Positions 1-15,849 of a stretch of DNA of 20,534 nt are shown piece by piece. Position 1 is the stretch's first letter, and every line of letters starts with the position of its first letter. The translations under genes and the position numbers were made by a program. The notes under the pieces are model-generated. The model searched no databases. It had not been told where the DNA came from and saw nothing but the letters and a program-made list of their open reading frames with translations. Origin of the DNA: a virus (taxonomy: Duplodnaviria; Heunggongvirae; Uroviricota; Caudoviricetes); IMG/VR virus record IMGVR_UViG_2737471824_000003; one strand, 5' to 3'.

Positions 1-282
1 TCAATAAATCCCATCATTGCGATCAACCTCATCCTTAACCATTGATGCGAGCAGTTCTTCCAGTTTCTGCGCTGACAGCTTTACCTGGTGATCTTCAGCA
101 TCTTCCCGGGCTATTGTGGTTCGCGCAGTGGCTGATTTTGCTGACATCACCACAGGGGGCAGACGGACCATTGAACCATGGCCTCCGGAACAAATAAGGG
201 CAAAAATAACAACCACTATCGAAAGCTCACAAACTAACCGCAGCACGTTCCTGTATACGACGTGTCTGCGGCATAATCCCAA
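1..282 (-). CDS. hypothetical protein (uncertain ORF; TTG-initiated 93 aa, or 56 aa from an internal ATG at 179)
   Basis: Complete ORF with TGA at 1-3. The track start is TTG and no strong SD precedes either candidate start. Lies distal to the tfa remnant. No recognisable motif. Confidence 0.2.
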   Translation of the reverse strand: MGLCRRHVVYRNVLRLVCELSIVVVIFALICSGGHGSMVRLPPVVMSAKSATARTTIAREDAEDHQVKLSAQKLEELLASMVKDEVDRNDGIY

Positions 283-451
283 TGATTACTCCCTGACAGG
301 ATTTGCAGGCCACTCAATATCAGGTGCAGTTGATGTATCAACACGATTCAACAATACCCGATATTTATTCCATGCCTCCAGCAACGATCTTTCTTCCGCC
401 GTTGCGATTTCCAGATCTACAGCATCCTGCAGTGGCGCAATATACTCACTG
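236..451. repeat. direct repeat copy A (~215 bp): 3' end of tfa plus its downstream hairpin
   Basis: Aligns by eye at high identity with 1286-1500 (aaccgcagcacgttc...gcgcaatat[a/g]ctcactg). The sequence diverges immediately 5' of this block. Confidence 0.75.
238..271 (-). terminator. degenerate stem-loop (copy of the tfa-distal hairpin)
   Basis: ccgcagcacgt...acgtg-t-ctgcgg: same arms as the 1288-1320 hairpin but with a one-base bulge. Confidence 0.3.
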
Positions 452-555
452 AATTCCTGGATGTAGAACTGTGTGGTGACGGTCTTCCAGCCATTCGGCT
501 CCTGCTGTATCGAAGCATACCAGGCTATTTCAATATCGCTATGCTGCGGCAGCAT
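286..555 (-). CDS. tail fiber assembly protein paralog, short form (89 aa; Tfa C-terminal domain with divergent N-terminus)
   Basis: C-terminal ~50 aa ([44 protein letters not shown]) nearly identical to the C-terminus of the full tfa at 1335-1919. ATG at 555 is preceded by aaggggttaa. Could be a functional short Tfa or a module-exchange remnant. Confidence 0.55.
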
Positions 556-611
556 TTAACCCCTTGTAATTCATCGCCATAATTGATTTAATTCACAAAT
601 AAAACTATAAC

Positions 612-1280
612 ATGGTGAAATTAATGAAAAAAAACACAGATGATGGGGCTAAAATTTACACACCACTTACCCTAAAGCTTTATGACTGGTGGGTTTTGGG
701 AGTATCAAATTGGCTTGCATGGGGATGTCCTACAAAGGAACACCTTCTTCCACACTTTCTGGAACATTTAGGTAACAACCATCTGGATATTGGTGTTGGA
801 ACTGGGTTTTACCTTACTCACGTACCTGAGAGTAGTCTGATATCTTTAATGGATTTGAACGAAGCTAGCCTGAACGCGGCATCTACAAGGGCTGGGGAAT
901 CAAAAATTAAACATAAAATTAGCCATGATGTTTTTGAACCTTATCCCGCGGCGTTACATGGTCAATTTGATTCCATTTCCATGTTTTACCTTCTTCACTG
1001 CCTGCCTGGAAATATAACTACAAAAAGCTGTGTAATACGCAATGCGGCGCAGGCCTTAACTGACGATGGAACTCTATACGGAGCCACAATTCTTGGCGAT
1101 GGAGTTGTGCACAATAGCTTCGGTCAAAAACTGATGCGCATTTACAATCAGAAAGGCATCTTTTCAAACACAAAAGATTCCGAAGAAGGCTTAACACATA
1201 TACTCTCAGAGCATTTCGAGAATGTTAAAACCAAGGTTCAAGGTACTGTAGTAATGTTTTCCGCTTCAGGGAAAAAATAG
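612..1280 (+). CDS. class I SAM-dependent methyltransferase, 222 aa (possible start at ATG 624); AT-rich moron
   Basis: Motif I LDIGVGTGFYL (hh-D-h-GxGxG) followed by an acidic beta-2 end (LMDLNE), i.e. a Rossmann-fold MTase. No DPPY/NPPY or PCQ motif, so not an obvious DNA MTase. Markedly AT-rich relative to the flanking tfa/stf, opposite strand to the tail genes, and bracketed by the duplicated tfa 3' segment and hairpins. Confidence 0.8.
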   Translation: MVKLMKKNTDDGAKIYTPLTLKLYDWWVLGVSNWLAWGCPTKEHLLPHFLEHLGNNHLDIGVGTGFYLTHVPESSLISLMDLNEASLNAASTRAGESKIKHKISHDVFEPYPAALHGQFDSISMFYLLHCLPGNITTKSCVIRNAAQALTDDGTLYGATILGDGVVHNSFGQKLMRIYNQKGIFSNTKDSEEGLTHILSEHFENVKTKVQGTVVMFSASGKK

Positions 1281-1285
1281 CATCC

Positions 1286-1500
1286 AACCGCAGCACGTTC
1301 TTGCTTAAGACGTGCTGCGGCATAATCCCAATGATTACTCCCTGACAGAGTTCGTAGGCCACTCAATATCAGGTGCAGTTGATGTATCAACACGGTTCAG
1401 CAACACCCGATACTTTTTCCAGGCTTCCAGCAATGAGGTTTCTTCCTCCGTTGCAATTTCCAGATCTGCAGCATCCTGAAGCGGCGCAATATGCTCACTG
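1286..1500. repeat. direct repeat copy B (3' end of intact tfa plus terminator hairpin)
   Basis: Partner of 236-451. Confidence 0.75.
1288..1320 (-). terminator. stem-loop downstream of tfa (11-bp perfect stem, 11-nt loop)
   Basis: ccgcagcacgt/acgtgctgcgg perfect inverted repeat immediately 3' of the tfa stop on the minus strand and 3' of the MTase stop on the plus strand. The T-tract is weak, so possibly bidirectional or Rho-assisted. Confidence 0.45.
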
Positions 1501-1919
1501 GCTACCTGCATCAGGTTGTTTTTTGTTTCTTCCGCCTCCCGGATCCGGAACAGTTTTTCTGCTTCCGTATCCTTCACCCAGGCTGTGCCGTTCCACTTCT
1601 GAAACTCCCCTTCCGGCGATAACCAGGTAACATTTTCCGGTAACGGACCGAGTTCAGAAATAAATAACTCGTCCCCTGACGCTACGTCATAAACCGTTTT
1701 CCCCCGATGGTCTTCAACGAGATGCCACGATGCCTCATCACTGTTGAAAACAGCCACAAAGCCAGCAGCAATATCTGGTGGTGCAATATCGGTACTGTTT
1801 GCTGGCAGACCTGTATGAGGCGGAATATATGCGTCACCTTCACCAATAAATTCATTAGTTCCGGCCAGCAGATTATAAATTTTTATGGTCCGTGCTTGTT
1901 CACTCATTCTGAATGCCAT
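1335..1919 (-). CDS. tfa: tail fiber assembly protein Tfa (194 aa)
   Basis: Near-identical from N to C terminus to the lambda Tfa as I recall it ([49 protein letters not shown]...), same length. The ATG overlaps the stf stop (TAATG). Confidence 0.95.
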
Positions 1920-4900
1920 TATGCAAGCCTCACAATATAGTTAAATGCGATGTTTTTGACGGTGTTTTCCGCGTTACCCGCAGCGTTAACGGTGATGGTG
2001 TGTCCATGTGAACCAATCGCAACGGAGTGCGTATGCGCACCAATACCTACAGTATGTGCATGTGCGCCAGAACTTGCTGCAGTACCAGACAGCGAGTGGG
2101 TATGAGCACCTGCTGACTGTGTCTGAATACGTTGATAATACGATCTATAGGAAGAAGTCTCCGGGCTTACTTGATACTGTGAATTCTGGACATAAGTGAA
2201 CCCACCGCCATCATAAAATGCTAACGCAGAACCGCCGCCTCCTGGCCAACGAATACCATTACCATGAGTATGAACACCGGCAGACCCCGTAGAGCCACTC
2301 AGACTGTGCGTATGCGCCCCGGTGTTATTCGTGGATTTAGTGCCGTAATCAAACGACGATGTGGTTTTCGTCCCTAAATCCGTACTGGATGCGCTGGCGC
2401 TGTGGGTGTGCGATTTAATGCCGTCCTGTTCCTGAGACAATACGGCCCGGCCACTGGCGGGTTTGCCCTTGATTGTCCAGCCGCGCATATCTGGAATAAC
2501 ACCTGAAGGATAGGCAATAGCCAGTTTCGGATATGCTGCCTTATCAAACGTCTGCCCCTGCATGATTGCATAACCTGCAGGTGGTGTATCTGATGGCCAC
2601 GGCAGCGGAACACCTGGCGGAAACGCTTCAATATTTGCCGAGCCGTCAAATTTTACGCCGTTAATTGTCCTTGCAGTTTGCAATTTGGTTGCTGTGCTTG
2701 CATTACCCGATAAAGATCCAGTGATACCACCACTCGCGTTTAATTTAGTTGCAATTGTAACATTGCCAGTATGGTTACTAATTATAAACGGCCTTAAGCT
2801 ATTGTGCGTACCAAGACTGTTACCCGAATCTGTCAACATAAAATATGTGTTTGATCCATCATTTCGGATAAAGAATCCATAGTTGCCATAGGCAATACGC
2901 AGACCATTTGCTGACCTTGAAATAACCTCACCAGCAGCAGTTAAACCACCTGAAAGAGTCCCTCCAGTTAATGCCAATGCCCCAATATTTGAAGGGGTCA
3001 ATGTGATATTTGCACTACCATCAAATGACACACCGTTAATCGTTCTGGCTGCCTGAAGTTTCGTGGCGGTCGCAGCATTACCTGTAGTGTTTTGATTACC
3101 GGTAGCGTTGACTCCAGGCAAGTTGATATCTGCCGATCCATCAAATGCCACGCCCCCAATCTTACGTGCTGTCTTGATCTTGGTCGCAGTATCTGCGTTT
3201 CCGGTCAAATTACCAGTAACACTACCACCAACTTTTAGTCCATTACCGATGGACACCAACCCTGATCTTAAGTTTATAGAGAATGGTCTTAATGAACCGA
3301 TGTCTCCATTTTCCCCCTCCCCTTCATTAGTCGGAATAAGATGAAGATGATCTTCGGAACGCCTAAAAATAAGGCCAAAGGCTTGGTTGAATATTCGAAG
3401 AGCATTTATCGTGCTGATTTTTAACTGCCCTCCCATTGTGTCGCCAGTTTTTTGAACTGAACTATCTTTAACAGTTTTAACTGCCTTTGGCGTTGCCGCC
3501 AGCTTTTCACTGGTGCTGTTTGTTGCACTGCTGAGCTGTACTATCCCCTTTTTCGTCGTGCTCGCATCCTCCAGCGCTACGGCGGATGCAATATCCTCTG
3601 CCCGTTTTGCTGCTGTCTCGGCGCGCGTTGCCGCGGATTCAGCAGCAACTTTGCTCTGAGATGCAGCCGTCGCACTGCCTGCCGCCTCTGATGCTTTCGT
3701 TGTTGCTGTCGTGGCACTACCTTTCGCTGCTGACGCTTGTCTGGTCGCCTCATCTTTTGAAGCAGACGCAGATGATGCCGATGACGCCGCTGAACTGGCT
3801 GACGATGCGGCTGCCGCCTTAGAGGAAGCAGCATTGTCTGCTGAAGTCTTTGCATTTGTTTCAGAGGTTTTTGCTGCAGAAGCAGACCTCGCTGCTGCAG
3901 TGGCTTGCTCAGTGGCTTTGCCAGCCTTCGTTGTGGCTGTTGAAGCGGATGATGCGGCGCTTTCTGCCGATTTTCCGGCGGCGGTGGCACTGGCTGAGGC
4001 CTGCCCGGCACTTGTTGACGCGGCACTGGCAGATAATGCAGCCGCTGTTTTTGAACCTGCCGCAGCTGAGGCGCTCTGTCCCGCTGCTGTTTCAGAAGAC
4101 TTAGCGTTCGTCTCGGACGTTTTTGCCGCCTTCGCGGAATTTCCTGCCGCCGTTGCCGAGGAAGCTGCACTACTGGCACTTGATGATGCATTCGTTTCTG
4201 AAGATTTCGCTGCCTCTTTTGAGGCCGCCGCACCCCGTGCCGAGGTGGCAGCTTCTGACGCCTTCGTGGTCGCTGTGGATGCAGAAGTGGCTGCCGATTT
4301 TTGTGATGCTGCGGCATTCGTTTCTGACGTTTTCGCGGCACTGGCGCTGGTAGCTGCCGCGCTTTTTGATGACTCTGCAGCAGCAGCACTTTTTGCTGCT
4401 TCACGGGCCTTTGTCGATGCCGTTCCTGCGCTGGAAGACGCTGACTGAGCCGACGACGCGGCCTGTCCGGCTGACGTGCTGGCGGCACGTGCTGAGGCTG
4501 CAGCATCGGTTGCATGAGTTGCCGCCTCGCTGGCTGATGCACTGGCATCGCTGGCTGATTTTTTCGCGGCTGCCGTATTCTGTGCAACCGCGGAGGCGTT
4601 ACGTGACACCTCTTCCACCATCTGCTCAAAGCGGCGCAGTGCCTCCGGTCGGACATCATCCTCCGTCATGGCACCGAGAAAATCATTCAGCGTACCTGGT
4701 CTGGAACCTTCATAGACGGTAATGGTCCCGGCATGTGAAGGCGGAAAACCTTCAACCAGCAGGGTGACGCTGTACTGACCATGCTCAACATCCATGCTGT
4801 AACGTCCGGCTTCATCCGGATTTTCAGAGGCCACCGTGTTCACCACCACCGTGCTGCTGGTTCGTCTGGCCTTCAGCACAATGGTGCAGTTCTGTACTGG

Positions 4901-4945
4901 TTTTCCTGTGCCATCTTTAAGCACGCCAGAAATTTTTACTGTCAT
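1919..4945 (-). CDS. stf: side tail fiber protein Stf (1008 aa)
   Basis: N-terminal ~120 aa match the lambdoid Stf N-domain ([21 protein letters not shown]...[14 protein letters not shown]). Followed by a ~330-aa Ala/Ser/Thr-rich low-complexity shaft, three tandem GNxxTATKLQxARTINGVxFDGSANI fibre repeats, and a His-rich C-terminus (GAHTHSLSG...[14 protein letters not shown]...NYIVRLA) typical of receptor-binding tips. Confidence 0.95.
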
Positions 4946-4992: not shown

Positions 4993-5169
4993 CAGGACAG
5001 TGTAACTTTACGTTTCCTCAAACGCAGTTCACCCCATAAGGTGGATGAACCTGCGTATCATAACAATATTTACAGAAGATAAATCGGCGTCTGTTGTCAG
5101 AAACGGTATCCGATACCAACAATAAATGCATCCGTTCGCCAGTCGCCACTACCGGAACCTTCATAAGCG

Positions 5170-5418
5170 TTATTCGGTGTAGGCTTCCACCAGTAACTCG
5201 AGTGCACGCGCATCAAGCTGAGAAATGATCCCTTCCGCATTCAGTTCTTCCGCCATTCGCCTGAACCAGTACTTCCCCTGCGACCCTAAATGTTGCGGAA
5301 TTTTAGGGAGACATTTTTCATCCTTTTTAGCGGTTTTTTTTGGGTCTTTAACGGGGCGCTTTGAGGGGTTGCCTCGTATCAAATGCAGGCGTGGCGGGGT
5401 TTTCAGGGGTCCTGACAT
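5170..5418 (-). pseudogene. terminase small subunit, P27 family, C-terminally truncated (82 aa)
   Basis: N-terminus carries the P27-family signature (..LIRGNPSKRPV..). Full-length members are roughly twice as long. The ORF ends ...LELLVEAYTE* about 220 bp upstream of stf, and no large terminase follows. Confidence 0.6.
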
Positions 5419-6441: not shown

Positions 6442-6735
6442 ATGAAAAAAATGTTGTTTTCTGCCGCTCTGGCAATGCTTATTACAGGATGTGCTCAACA
6501 GACGTTTACTGTTGGAAACAAACCGACAGCAGTAACACCAAAGGAAACCATCACCCATCATTTCTTCGTTTCGGGAATTGGACAGGAGAAAACTGTTGAT
6601 GCAGCCAAAATTTGTGGCGGCGCAGAAAATGTTGTTAAAACAGAAACCCAGCAAACATTCGTAAATGGATTTCTCGGTTTTATTACTTTAGGCATTTATA
6701 CTCCACTGGAAGCGCGTGTGTATTGCTCACAATAA
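6442..6735 (+). CDS. bor: Bor/Iss-family outer-membrane lipoprotein (serum resistance), 97 aa
   Basis: Near-identical to lambda Bor as recalled (MKKML..ALA.LITGCAQQTFTV.NKP.AV.PKETITHHFFVSGIGQ.KTVDAAKICGGAENVVKTETQQTFVNG.LGFITLGIYTPLEARVYCSQ). Lipobox LITGC; AGGA RBS at 6432-6435. The track ORF starts upstream at 6394. Confidence 0.95.
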   Translation: MKKMLFSAALAMLITGCAQQTFTVGNKPTAVTPKETITHHFFVSGIGQEKTVDAAKICGGAENVVKTETQQTFVNGFLGFITLGIYTPLEARVYCSQ

Positions 6736-9148: not shown

Positions 9149-9484
9149 ATGAAGTGGATTGTGATTGATACAGTTATCCAGCCATCATGCGGAATATCTT
9201 TTTCAGTCATATGGAGTAAAGTAAAATTAATAATCTGGTATCAATCGGATGCTTTCTTACCTCCTGAAAGTATATTTACACTGACTCACACAGGTATCAT
9301 GCTCAATAACAAAGTGCTACCTGTAACCATTTACAACGTAGTACCATTCAATAAAACATTCTGGAATTTAATCAAAAACAGCCAGGAATGCCCTACAAAT
9401 ACAGATAACGTATTGAATGAATGCTTTAATAACCGTTGCATTCTGCAAATATGTCCTTATGGACTAAAACAACAAAGTCCATAA
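9149..9484 (+). CDS. hypothetical protein, 111 aa, AT-rich cargo gene with rare-codon bias
   Basis: ATG preceded by AAGGA (caaggaaactaaATG). Six Cys. Five AUA (rare Ile) codons among 111. On the strand opposite to the late operon, inside the AT-rich island between the tRNAs and the lysis genes. No recognisable family. Confidence 0.45.
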
Positions 9485-10395: not shown

Positions 10396-10472
10396 TGGCG
10401 CGCTGTACTGGATTCGAACCAGTGACCGATTGCTTAGAAGGCAATTGCTCTGTCCGGCTGAGCTAACAACGC
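10396..10472 (-). tRNA. tRNA-Arg (anticodon UCU), 77 nt including CCA
   Basis: Reverse complement folds as a cloverleaf: acceptor GCGTTGT/ACAGCGC (one G-U pair), D-stem GCTC/GAGC, anticodon stem ATTGC/GCAAT with loop CTTCTAA, T-arm ACTGG-TTCGAAT-CCAGT, 3' GCCA. Differs from chromosomal argU as recalled, so phage-encoded. Confidence 0.9.
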
Positions 10473-10572: not shown

Positions 10573-10648
10573 TGGTGGCCCTTGCTGGATTTGAACCAGC
10601 GACCTGGCGATTATGAGTCGCTCGCTCTCACCACTGAGCTAAAGGGCC
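10573..10648 (-). tRNA. tRNA-Ile2 (anticodon CAU, lysidine type; ileX/ileZ-like), 76 nt including CCA
   Basis: Reverse complement GGCCCTTTAGCTCAGTGGTGAGAGCGAGCGACTCATAATCGCCAGGTCGCTGGTTCAAATCCAGCAAGGGCCACCA: perfect 7-bp acceptor stem, anticodon loop CTCATAA, T-loop TTCAAAT. Very close to E. coli ileX as recalled. An initiator or elongator Met identity is not excluded from sequence alone. Confidence 0.85.
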
Positions 10649-13490: not shown

Positions 13491-13646
13491 TTACTCCTCA
13501 GGTTCGTAAGCTGTGAAGACAGCGACCTCCGTCTGGCCGGTTCGGATTCGTACCTCGCAGAGGTCTTTCCTCGTTACCAGTGCCGTCACTATGACGGTTA
13601 AACAGATGACGATCAGGGCGATTAACATCGCCTTTTGCTGCTTCAT
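13491..13646 (-). CDS. hokD: Hok/Gef-family type I toxin (HokD/RelF-like), 51 aa
   Basis: Translates to MKQQKAMLIALIVICLTVIVTALVTRKDLCEVRIRTGQTEVAVFTAYEPEE, a canonical Hok (TM helix plus conserved Cys, C-terminal periplasmic tail). Below the ORF-track size cutoff. Confidence 0.9.
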   Translation of the reverse strand: MKQQKAMLIALIVICLTVIVTALVTRKDLCEVRIRTGQTEVAVFTAYEPEE

Positions 13647-14313: not shown

Positions 14314-14571
14314 TTAGTTGTTCATAAAAGTGCACAGCTTTAACCAGTTCTTCTGATGTAACCGGGACTGGCGGGGCAGTGAATAAGGCCTGAATTTCAT
14401 AGTTCGGCCTGTCGTTACAATCCTCTTTTTTCGGTACATATTTCCAGTCACCAGACCACTACTTCCCCTGAAAGTCCGTAACGCCTTTTTTTTCACGTAG
14501 CGATATCGCCATGCCACTGTTTTTGCTTGCCCCGCCGTTTCATGCCCTTCCTGATAATTAACCTCGCTCAT
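14314..14571 (-). CDS. basic small protein (85 aa in the 0 frame) containing an A_AAA_AAG slippery heptamer; a -1 shift would extend it to ~105 aa (stop at 14255-14257)
   Basis: ATG overlaps the stop of the upstream 58-aa gene (ATGA). In-frame heptamer A AAA AAG at 14425-14431 (minus-strand sense). The -1 frame is closed by TAG 11 codons upstream of the site and open for 56 codons downstream, with a more protein-like composition (..TSEELVKAVHFYEQLKRENPPASG..). Confidence 0.45.
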   Translation of the reverse strand: MSEVNYQEGHETAGQAKTVAWRYRYVKKKALRTFRGSSGLVTGNMYRKKRIVTTGRTMKFRPYSLPRQSRLHQKNWLKLCTFMNN

Positions 14572-14744
14572 TCATCGCCCCACTCATCACAATATGCTTC
14601 GACCGGAGTTTTTCCTGCTTCATAATCATCACGCCATGCTTCAGCATCAGCAGCACTGCCACCACGTAACTCTGCATAGTCCATTAACAGTTCATGCCAT
14701 TCTTCAAAACTGACGTTGTATTTAGTTGAACCAAAATCAGCCAT
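14568..14744 (-). CDS. small acidic protein (58 aa)
   Basis: ATG with GAGGAAG upstream. Product MADFGSTKYNVSFEEWHELLMDYAELRGGSAADAEAWRDDYEAGKTPVEAYCDEWGDE. Its stop overlaps the start of the next gene. Below the ORF-track cutoff. Confidence 0.4.
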   Translation of the reverse strand: MADFGSTKYNVSFEEWHELLMDYAELRGGSAADAEAWRDDYEAGKTPVEAYCDEWGDE

Positions 14745-14919
14745 TTTGTTCTTCCTCTTCGTCTTTTATTTCGTGATATGAGTAATTGCAGTAGTTAAAG
14801 AAAATATCTTTTGCTTCGTCATGTATTTCATCAGGCGTCGCATCATCATCCACTTCGAATTCATCCTCGAAATCTCCACCGGCTATTCCCGTTTCAATAA
14901 TTATTTTAAACTTTCGCAT
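14737..14919 (-). CDS. small acidic protein (60 aa)
   Basis: ATG-initiated; strongly acidic (DFEDEFEVDDDATPDEIHDEAKD...DEEEEQNG). A GNRA-type hairpin (14927-14942) lies just upstream. Confidence 0.45.
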   Translation of the reverse strand: MRKFKIIIETGIAGGDFEDEFEVDDDATPDEIHDEAKDIFFNYCNYSYHEIKDEEEEQNG

Positions 14920-15012
14920 TTAACTACCGCCCTTTCGGGCGGCCTCCTGATGTTCTGAGGGTGCAGAAATCCCTCCGGTTAAGGATTAAATTTTTAACAG
15001 AGCTAAATTTAA

Positions 15013-15426
15013 TTATTCAGTTCTGGATTTTGTCGCCCTGCGTATCCGCGCTTTCGCGTTACGCTCAATCTGAATTAGCTTTTCTATATTTTTTCGCCTT
15101 TCCCGCTCCTCCTGACGCAAGAGCCTTACATCATCTGCCAGTCTGGTTTCTCTTTTCGCCACAGAGAGCATCCAGTCAAATGGCTCCACAACTGCACCGC
15201 AGATTTTACAGCGGACCTGACGCTCTTTTTCGTCAACCCGGACAGAGGCGTGATGACAATATGGTCTTTCCGATGGCTCATAAAGAAAATTAACCTGATT
15301 ACGAGGGTCATCCTCTTTTACCGGAAATAAAACGATATTGCTTAACTCATCCTCTGGTTTTATTTCCATGCTCCTCTCCTTTGATGCGAATGCCAGCGGT
15401 AATTGAAGCCTGATAGCTAATTTCAC
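15013..15426 (-). CDS. hypothetical protein with zinc-ribbon-like CHH...CKIC motif (137 aa from GTG; 118 aa from ATG 15369)
   Basis: GTG 15426 is preceded by AGGAGG (7-nt spacer) inside a repeated GGTAATTTTCAGGAGG element. Charged/coiled C-terminus. Confidence 0.5.
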   Translation of the reverse strand: MKLAIRLQLPLAFASKERSMEIKPEDELSNIVLFPVKEDDPRNQVNFLYEPSERPYCHHASVRVDEKERQVRCKICGAVVEPFDWMLSVAKRETRLADDVRLLRQEERERRKNIEKLIQIERNAKARIRRATKSRTE

Positions 15427-15849
15427 TCACAGTACCGCCTCCTGAAAATTACCCTGATAGAAAGCCAGTACACGCTGCATAGCTTCACTCTTCCGGCACT
15501 CGCGACAGATTATGTTTAGGCGACTGTCGTAGCGACGTATTTCTCCGTCAGGTAACGACCAGATAAGGTCCGGATCAACCACAGCAGGTTTCTTCACCTT
15601 TGCCCTCGAGAGTTTTTTGCGGGCGTTTTGCCAGTCCTTACGCGCCTGTTCAGAGGGGAATAACCCGTAGCCGGAGTTGTATACATCGCCGCTGGCAACC
15701 AGCTCTCTTGCGAGAACGCTCATCAGATATCTTGTCGCACCTGTCTTGACTTCCAGTTGCCGTAACGTCTCACGCCCACTCTGGCGTACGAGTTCAACAA
15801 CCTGCCCTTTAATTTTTTCTCGCTCTTCTTGTGTAAAAACTTTTGCCAC
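15427..15849 (-). CDS. hypothetical protein, 140 aa (possible DNA-binding accessory protein of the replication module)
   Basis: GTG start preceded by the same GGTAATTTTCAGGAGG element. No Walker motif, so not a DnaC-type loader. Confidence 0.5.
   Translation of the reverse strand: MAKVFTQEEREKIKGQVVELVRQSGRETLRQLEVKTGATRYLMSVLARELVASGDVYNSGYGLFPSEQARKDWQNARKKLSRAKVKKPAVVDPDLIWSLPDGEIRRYDSRLNIICRECRKSEAMQRVLAFYQGNFQEAVL

Follow-up and report, generated by a model that had tools for sequence, protein, structure and literature searches.

What is a methyltransferase gene doing beside the tail-fibre genes of a lambdoid phage, on the opposite strand from them and enclosed by two copies of the 3′ end of one of them? 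The question is raised by IMG/VR virus record IMGVR_UViG_2737471824_000003, a stretch of 20,534 nucleotides (the window, below), in which an open reading frame (ORF) carrying the motif LDIGVGTG lies between directly repeated ends of the tail-fibre assembly gene tfa. An earlier reading, made from the sequence alone, had described a class I S-adenosylmethionine (SAM)-dependent methyltransferase on the opposite strand between two direct repeats, a description confirmed by Pfam and by a repeat search, and had considered the arrangement unusual, which it is not. The best explanation of the whole, with a probability of roughly 0.8, is that the window contains a copy of ybcY–tfaX, a widespread accessory module of Escherichia coli lambdoid prophages, located just downstream of stf–tfa and close to the right end of a defective prophage in ompW. 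The module is already known and annotated in E. coli K-12; it is an ordinary one, not a new one.

The gene order tfaD–ybcY–tfaX in the K-12 cryptic prophage DLP12 is the same as that in the window, orientation included: tfa, an opposite-strand methyltransferase (ybcY, b0562) and a short tfa-like ORF. At the DNA level the two loci are 96.7% identical over window positions 309-1773 and 98.9% over the core, and they have the same promoter spacer; with this identity and the conserved synteny, the window gene is an orthologue of ybcY. The two loci also differ. The window allele is intact, whereas that of K-12 is a pseudogene that lacks 2 nt at the start codon (equivalent to window 626-627); TfaX has 89 aa in the window and 61 in K-12; and K-12 has a truncated tfaD with appY–ompT after it, whereas the window module is next to a DUF4376 fragment and the attachment site in ompW. 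Slippage in an A8 tract was rejected as the source of the K-12 frameshift, the lesion being the loss of those 2 nt and, with them, of the likely start codon. The gene is annotated in phage PhiR26_1 as “putative uncharacterized protein YbcY”. By BLAST coverage, the cassette core (556-1285) is present in 3836 of 5426 complete E. coli genomes (71%), in each with a best copy of at least 95% identity and in some with up to four copies, 4882 genomic copies in total; about 15 sequenced temperate lambdoid coliphages carry it as well. In E. coli it is therefore usual to find a methyltransferase next to tail-fibre genes, and the idea of a rare or odd cassette has to be corrected.

The gene itself is on the forward strand. 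Its ORF is open from 612 (612-1280, 222 aa), as the sequence-only reading had it, but the homologues in a 25-sequence alignment begin at M5, with one exception (P0004, three residues earlier), and the match to PHROG 2132 covers residues 5-222 of the 222-aa translation. Because of this agreement the real start is probably ATG 624, giving a protein of 218 aa (624-1280). Membership in the class I SAM-dependent methyltransferases is indicated by Pfam, in which Methyltransf_12 scores 37.5 bits against a cut-off of 30 and Methyltransf_23, _25 and _11 are also above their gathering scores, as well as by PHROG 2132, the alignment (LDIGVGTG is invariant in the 25 aligned homologues), an AlphaFold (AF2) model and Foldseek. 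The gene had also been called AT-rich; at 41% GC, with flanks of about 44-51% GC in 200-bp windows, it is only modestly so. Ratios of nonsynonymous to synonymous substitution (dN/dS) of 0.11-0.22 against the closer homologues are consistent with a gene that is conserved and under purifying selection.

Between the methyltransferase gene and the divergent tfaX is a spacer of 68 bp (556-623) with a predicted σ70 promoter, TTGATT (583-588) and TATAAC (606-611) separated by 17 nt; a promoter scan places a second candidate at 556-583. The same TTGATT-17-TATAAC promoter has been proposed for the K-12 ybcY/tfaX spacer, in which genomic SELEX (systematic evolution of ligands by exponential enrichment) found an RpoD holoenzyme site together with H-NS binding (PMC3946193). 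It is unchanged across eight phage copies.

The two direct repeats were located by repeat search at 236-462 (left) and 1286-1511 (right), pairing as 236-264 and 266-462 with 1286-1314 and 1315-1511, with one 1-nt indel. They are 86-88% identical and spaced 1049-1050 bp apart. The sequence-only reading had given them about 215 bp, each comprising the 3′ end of tfa and a terminator hairpin: the tfa ends and the hairpins are there, the length is closer to 227 bp, and a canonical U-tract was not found. The right repeat holds the true tfa 3′ end, according to alignment and folding as well, while the left holds a tfa 3′ segment in two parts, 236 to about 330 being of resident-prophage type and about 331-462 of cassette type. 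Each has its hairpin: on the left a palindrome, CCGCAGCACGT…ACGTGTCTGCGG (238-271), which recurs after lambda tfa and between lambda ea47 and ea31, and on the right one at 1288-1320, which follows the methyltransferase stop codon. The two fold at -18.8 to -28.5 kcal/mol (z -3.3 to -4.8 against shuffled sequence), and a hairpin comes directly after the methyltransferase stop in all E. coli-type cassette copies searched (14 loci). That these hairpins act as terminators is plausible. A relic of an invertible segment of the Gin/Pin type was also considered and rejected, since the two tfa ends are direct repeats, not inverted ones.

Do the repeats recombine? The 951-bp sequence that would result was simulated and searched against all complete E. 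coli genomes, and two of them, NZ_CP043406.1 and NZ_CP048934.1 (here L029 and L030), match it in one piece: each carries the ompW prophage of the window, minus the 1049-bp cassette. The one tfa end present in them is of left type through 306, except at position 254 (right-type), and of right type from 346, with isolated left-type sites inside the right-type part at 367 and 373 in L029 and at 355 in L030. The switch falls in 307-345 (equal to 1356-1394 in the right copy), a 39-bp stretch that is the only long one identical between the repeats. Between L029 and the window there are differences at 1 of 306 positions in the flank and at 8 of 3435 in tfa–stf; with flanks so nearly identical, the two prophages are near-isogenic, one with and one without the 1049 bp. 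The repeats recombine, removing or installing the cassette, and the earlier suggestion that they could mediate its loss or transfer by homologous recombination is borne out by these chimeric empty-site alleles.

In which direction did the exchange run? Loss from a window-like parent is favoured as the origin of the cassette-free alleles, because the patchy left-type sites resemble what heteroduplex repair would leave once the two copies had recombined; in mechanism, too, a deletion across direct repeats is the simpler reaction. The alternative, less probable but with a substantial claim of its own, is that L029 and L030 are ancestral and that homologous recombination brought the cassette of a PhiR26_1-like phage into the resident tfa 3′ end, through either single-crossover integration of a circular intermediate or unequal exchange. 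Such a gain would be the exact reverse of the deletion, and it would suit the composition of the window, in which 331-1511 is 99.2% identical to PhiR26_1 and the sequence to the left of 331 is identical to that of the empty-site prophages; it would, however, require both crossovers to fall within one short resident segment. Positions 236 to about 330, the outer portion of the left repeat with its hairpin, are found only in the ompW prophage type and have the sequence of the empty-site prophages; the 227-bp repeat of the window, unusually long, is therefore itself a product of a crossover in the tfa tail.

Where does the cassette end in other phages? Collinear homology to the window starts at 331 in PhiR26_1, PhiR29_1, 2G7b, ev243, PhiR49_1 and Turner, and at 309 in K-12 and PhiR68_2. 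On the right its end varies: in some it continues through stf, in K-12 it stops at 1773, in 2G7b, ev243 and PhiR49_1 at 1455, leaving only a tfa stub before different fibre genes, and in Turner and PhiR68_2 at 1320, where the right repeat is absent and ynaE and pin lie between the module and tfa. The methyltransferase gene is joined directly to the tfa 3′ segment in about 2297 genomes, against 3836 with the gene (about 60%). In lambda the tfa DNA is 92-94% identical, yet tfa and its hairpin run directly into ea47, without a methyltransferase.

By the usual marks the methyltransferase gene is therefore a moron-type accessory gene, as the sequence-only reading had proposed: it is missing from lambda and from L029 and L030, related phage and near-isogenic prophages with matching flanks, it is on the opposite strand and of lower GC, and it has promoter hexamers, a site bound in K-12 by RpoD and H-NS in vitro and, after its stop codon, a strong hairpin (lacking a U-tract); its expression is inferred. 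The moron concept is reportedly that of Hendrix and colleagues, with lambda lom, bor and, in the b region, ea47 as examples. Like other lambdoid morons, this is an extra gene that some otherwise collinear phages have and others lack, with its own putative promoter and hairpin terminator and a differing base composition; unlike them, its cargo is a methyltransferase of bacterial chromosomal origin.

The slot after tfa is empty in L029 and L030, occupied by ea47 in lambda and by methyltransferase–tfaX in the window. Copies of the hairpin enclose the cargo in both lambda and the window, and the empty-site prophages have a single copy; the hairpin seems to be a recurrent boundary of a cargo slot in lambdoid phages. 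The bracket in the window differs from one made of hairpins alone by the addition of 130-190 bp of tfa coding sequence, a longer substrate for homologous recombination. These alleles provide base-level evidence that the conserved tfa 3′ segment and the hairpin form a recombination joint for cargo swaps in lambdoid prophages. The two lambda copies of the 34-bp palindrome, which bracket ea47, are at 894-952 and 2498-2540 of the lambda locus L003 (window 214-272), and the outer flank of the second, between ea47 and ea31, matches the left flank of the window.

The left repeat overlaps a second ORF, of 89 aa, on the reverse strand (286-555). It had been seen as a short Tfa-like ORF with its own ribosome-binding site; the ORF is there, with AAGGGG 4 nt ahead of its ATG, but only its C-terminal 56 residues are tfa-like. 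These match Caudo_TAP at profile positions 75-130 of 131, so that the N-terminal two thirds of the domain are unmatched. The N-terminal 35 or so residues (roughly 450-555) come instead from a 79-aa gene of PHROG 3893, and the tfa C-terminus starts at about residue 36. In Citrobacter an intact 79-aa ORF opens with a sequence that has 76% identity to TfaX residues 1-37; its product belongs to PHROG 3893 over the full length and is related to HK225 gp28, and the ORF is divergently paired with a methyltransferase 89% identical to that of the window. Copies of tfaX with about 99% DNA identity have three different ends and lengths: 61 aa (K-12), 89 aa (the window) and 101 aa (PhiR26_1). Because the C-terminus differs between phages, TfaX is probably a remnant, a scar of gene fusion, as might be expected of what RefSeq annotates as a pseudogene. 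The original module would then have consisted of the 79-aa gene and the methyltransferase, with a tfa 3′ end later replacing the 3′ part of the former, since the N-terminus belongs to PHROG 3893 and the rest to tfa.

An insertion into or behind tfa that duplicated its 3′ end and left a small functional Tfa on the left, as the sequence-only reading supposed, is unlikely. Direct repeats do flank the gene, and the left ORF is intact, has its ribosome-binding site and matches PHROG 2341 over its full length. But the left copy is a fusion of PHROG 3893 and tfa sequence with variable C-termini and most of Caudo_TAP missing, its outer part is confined to one prophage type, and the extent of the repeat is not constant: its left limit varies between 236, 309 and 331, on the right it stops at 1320, 1455 or 1773 or continues through stf, and Turner and PhiR68_2 have no right repeat at all.

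If ybcY–tfaX is a module carried from phage to phage, where did the methyltransferase come from? In Salmonella, Enterobacter and Yersinia, homologues of 55-70% identity stand singly on the chromosome, in unrelated surroundings outside phages; further ones sit in variable islands. In a one-genome-per-species collection 527 candidate stretches encode a relative, and relatives of at least 50% identity reach Pseudomonas, Xanthomonadales and Oxalobacteraceae; the stand-alone chromosomal homologues of 50-70% identity span Gamma- and Betaproteobacteria. The sequence-only reading had named a broadly conserved chromosomal gene at the prophage end as grounds for refuting it, and half of this applies: the family is widely conserved on the chromosomes of other genera, but in E. 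coli the gene is inside prophages. The neighborhoods of 72 loci from other species were surveyed, and among the 67 that were usable no neighbor conserved across genera was found, neighbors being constant only within genera. Because chromosomal homologues are widespread, their neighbors genus-specific and dN/dS low, the gene appears to be an old, conserved, stand-alone bacterial function that was captured by E. coli phages.

Some neighborhoods have features of their own. A crotonase-like gene is next on the same strand in 11 Pseudomonas loci, and the Proteus homologues (L077, L078, L089, L090, L095, L101) adjoin a gene pair that looks ParB-nuclease-like and PAPS-reductase-like, of the IbrB/IbrA type. 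Copies 99% identical to the E. coli prophage gene are on contigs labeled as metagenome-assembled genomes of “Bacillus sp.” (L032) and “Planococcaceae” (L042); E. coli contamination of these bins is the most likely source.

What might YbcY methylate? Its AF2 model (pLDDT 90, the predicted local distance difference test) has the seven-stranded β-sheet fold of class I SAM methyltransferases, and the nearest structures found by Foldseek are almost all small-molecule or lipid enzymes. The best PDB matches include phosphatidylethanolamine N-methyltransferase, juvenile-hormone acid methyltransferase (JHAMT), phosphoethanolamine methyltransferases, NodS and natural-product enzymes, with R. thermophilum PmtA (8ys9), of similar length, in first place (template modeling, or TM, score 0.65-0.68). 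YbcY has in common with such enzymes (PmtA 8ys9, JHAMT 7ec0, PfPMT 3uj7, BelI 9fce, DhpI 3ou2, Coq5 4obw) the seven-stranded Rossmann-like fold, an N-terminal helical lid, a GxGxG motif I and acidic residues after strands 2 and 3. It differs from them in that identity is at most 21% and the TM score at most about 0.66-0.68, and its invariant motifs YDWWVL…N..AW.C.T, HCLPG and YN.KGIF.N..D are not those of any characterized enzyme retrieved. As modeled, YbcY resembles small-molecule or lipid methyltransferases, not DNA ones, and the best guess for its substrate is some common host lipid or small metabolite, rather than nucleic acid (DNA or RNA) or a virion component.

Family searches do not narrow this further. 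Pfam returns only generic methyltransferase domains; in an NCBIfam scan no curated family claims YbcY, all matches being below threshold. The PmtA equivalog model NF045882 gives 15.7 bits against a cut-off of 390, a distant similarity of fold only, and RquA (NF038261) 16.9 bits against 175; YbcY thus matches the curated models of neither PmtA nor the UbiG/UbiE/RquA quinone methyltransferases. Sequence and profile searches of the PDB gave JHAMT and UbiG only, weakly and over the SAM core, the UbiG matches (E = 7e-4 to 2e-3) being confined to the SAM-binding core. In the literature searched, the names ybcY and tfaX are confined to lists and the SELEX promoter table; no study of function was found, nor anything on a methyltransferase moron beside tail fibre assembly genes of lambdoid phages.

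More specific roles are improbable at present. YbcY might be an enzyme of lysogenic conversion that methylates a lipid of the host envelope or an abundant metabolite, for instance a PmtA-like phospholipid N-methyltransferase that remodels the membrane of the lysogen (phosphatidylethanolamine to monomethyl-phosphatidylethanolamine); the top Foldseek match, the weak NCBIfam match to PmtA and a conserved Trp-rich N-terminal helix are in favor of the PmtA-like version. If lysogenic conversion were true, surface properties, phage adsorption or fitness could be altered in most natural E. coli, a phenotype that would have been overlooked because the K-12 copy is a pseudogene. Least likely of all is that the enzyme modifies nucleic acid, protecting phage DNA from restriction or taking part in defense or anti-defense: the gene is phage-borne and in a moron hot spot, and PADLOC gives a weak match to mad2 (E = 0.019), but this is not significant and the defense role was rejected on that account, the protein has only 218 aa, neither a target-recognition domain nor DNA-methyltransferase motif IV, (D/N/S)PP(Y/F/W) or PC, was found in the 222-aa translation, no DNA-methylase Pfam family matches, the nearest structures are of another kind, and the homologues are stand-alone genes without a partner gene. 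The RNA-modification or anti-defense role offered in the sequence-only reading is likewise unsupported.

The history proposed for the ybcY–tfaX module is then as follows. A bacterial methyltransferase gene would have been captured by phage in an ancestral module in which it was paired with the divergent 79-aa gene of PHROG 3893; in E. coli phages a tfa 3′ end would have replaced the 3′ part of that gene, producing the chimeric remnant TfaX. Because TfaX and the neighboring tfa have a conserved tfa 3′ segment in common, the cassette is bracketed by direct repeats, and homologous recombination between these could remove or install the 1049 bp and shuttle the cassette between prophages with different tail-fibre genes; the stretch from 236 to about 330 would be the resident prophage's own tfa end and hairpin. 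In the lysogen, the gene is probably transcribed from its own σ70 promoter in the divergent spacer and probably silenced by H-NS, with the transcript probably ending at the palindromic hairpin just past the stop codon.

Several points weigh against this account or parts of it. Promoter use and H-NS silencing are taken from in vitro SELEX with K-12, where ybcY is a pseudogene, and the predicted -10 element leaves nearly no leader ahead of ATG 624. Neither hairpin has a canonical U-tract in the terminator scan. The exchange recorded in L029 and L030 can be read as loss from a window-like parent or as gain into an empty one, and the existence of PHROG 2341 as a full-length family for the 89-aa ORF leaves room for a function of TfaX. 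The fold matches are flat and distant, at 15-21% identity, and no specific family match names a substrate. The genome-wide counts are based on BLAST coverage thresholds, only a dozen loci having been aligned base by base. The practical value of the result is modest. For ybcY, K-12 is a natural null, and K-12 and its knockout collections are uninformative on the function of the gene.

Several E. coli genomes carry, integrated in ompW and adjoining the trp operon, a defective lambdoid prophage with a segment 100% identical to positions 1-2000 of the window. At the left edge is the 3′ fragment of a DUF4376-type tail-fibre or chaperone gene (1-189, reverse strand), annotated as a pseudogene in the 100%-identical NZ_AP021946.1 and matched by PHROG 7703 and 1141 (residues from 1-147); it continues past the edge, and the prophage ends about 300 bp beyond, in a truncated ompW. 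On the other side of the cassette, also on the reverse strand, are tfa (1335-1919), a full-length lambda-type gene of 194 aa (Caudo_TAP, E = 1.4e-43) within a region (1286-2017) that has 93.9% DNA identity to lambda, and the side tail fibre gene stf (1919-4945, 1008 aa; Pfam phage_tail_N, Gp34_trimer and Collar). Beyond stf, RefSeq annotation of an identical genome has a truncated P27-family small terminase gene joined almost without a gap to a lom fragment (5097-5418). Because the entire block of head and tail genes is deleted, the prophage is defective, as DLP12 is.

The same prophage has further accessory genes, iss, iraM and hokD (6442-6735, 9149-9484 and 13491-13646), encoding a bor-like serum-survival lipoprotein, an anti-adaptor and a toxin, respectively, and in its early region RefSeq annotates an IS2 insertion at 14468-15696. 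Two tRNA genes (10396-10472 and 10573-10648) are located downstream of a Q-like antiterminator gene. ARAGORN calls them Arg(TCT) and Met(CAT); RefSeq labels the second tRNA-Ile, presumably on the basis that its CAT anticodon is lysidine-modified.

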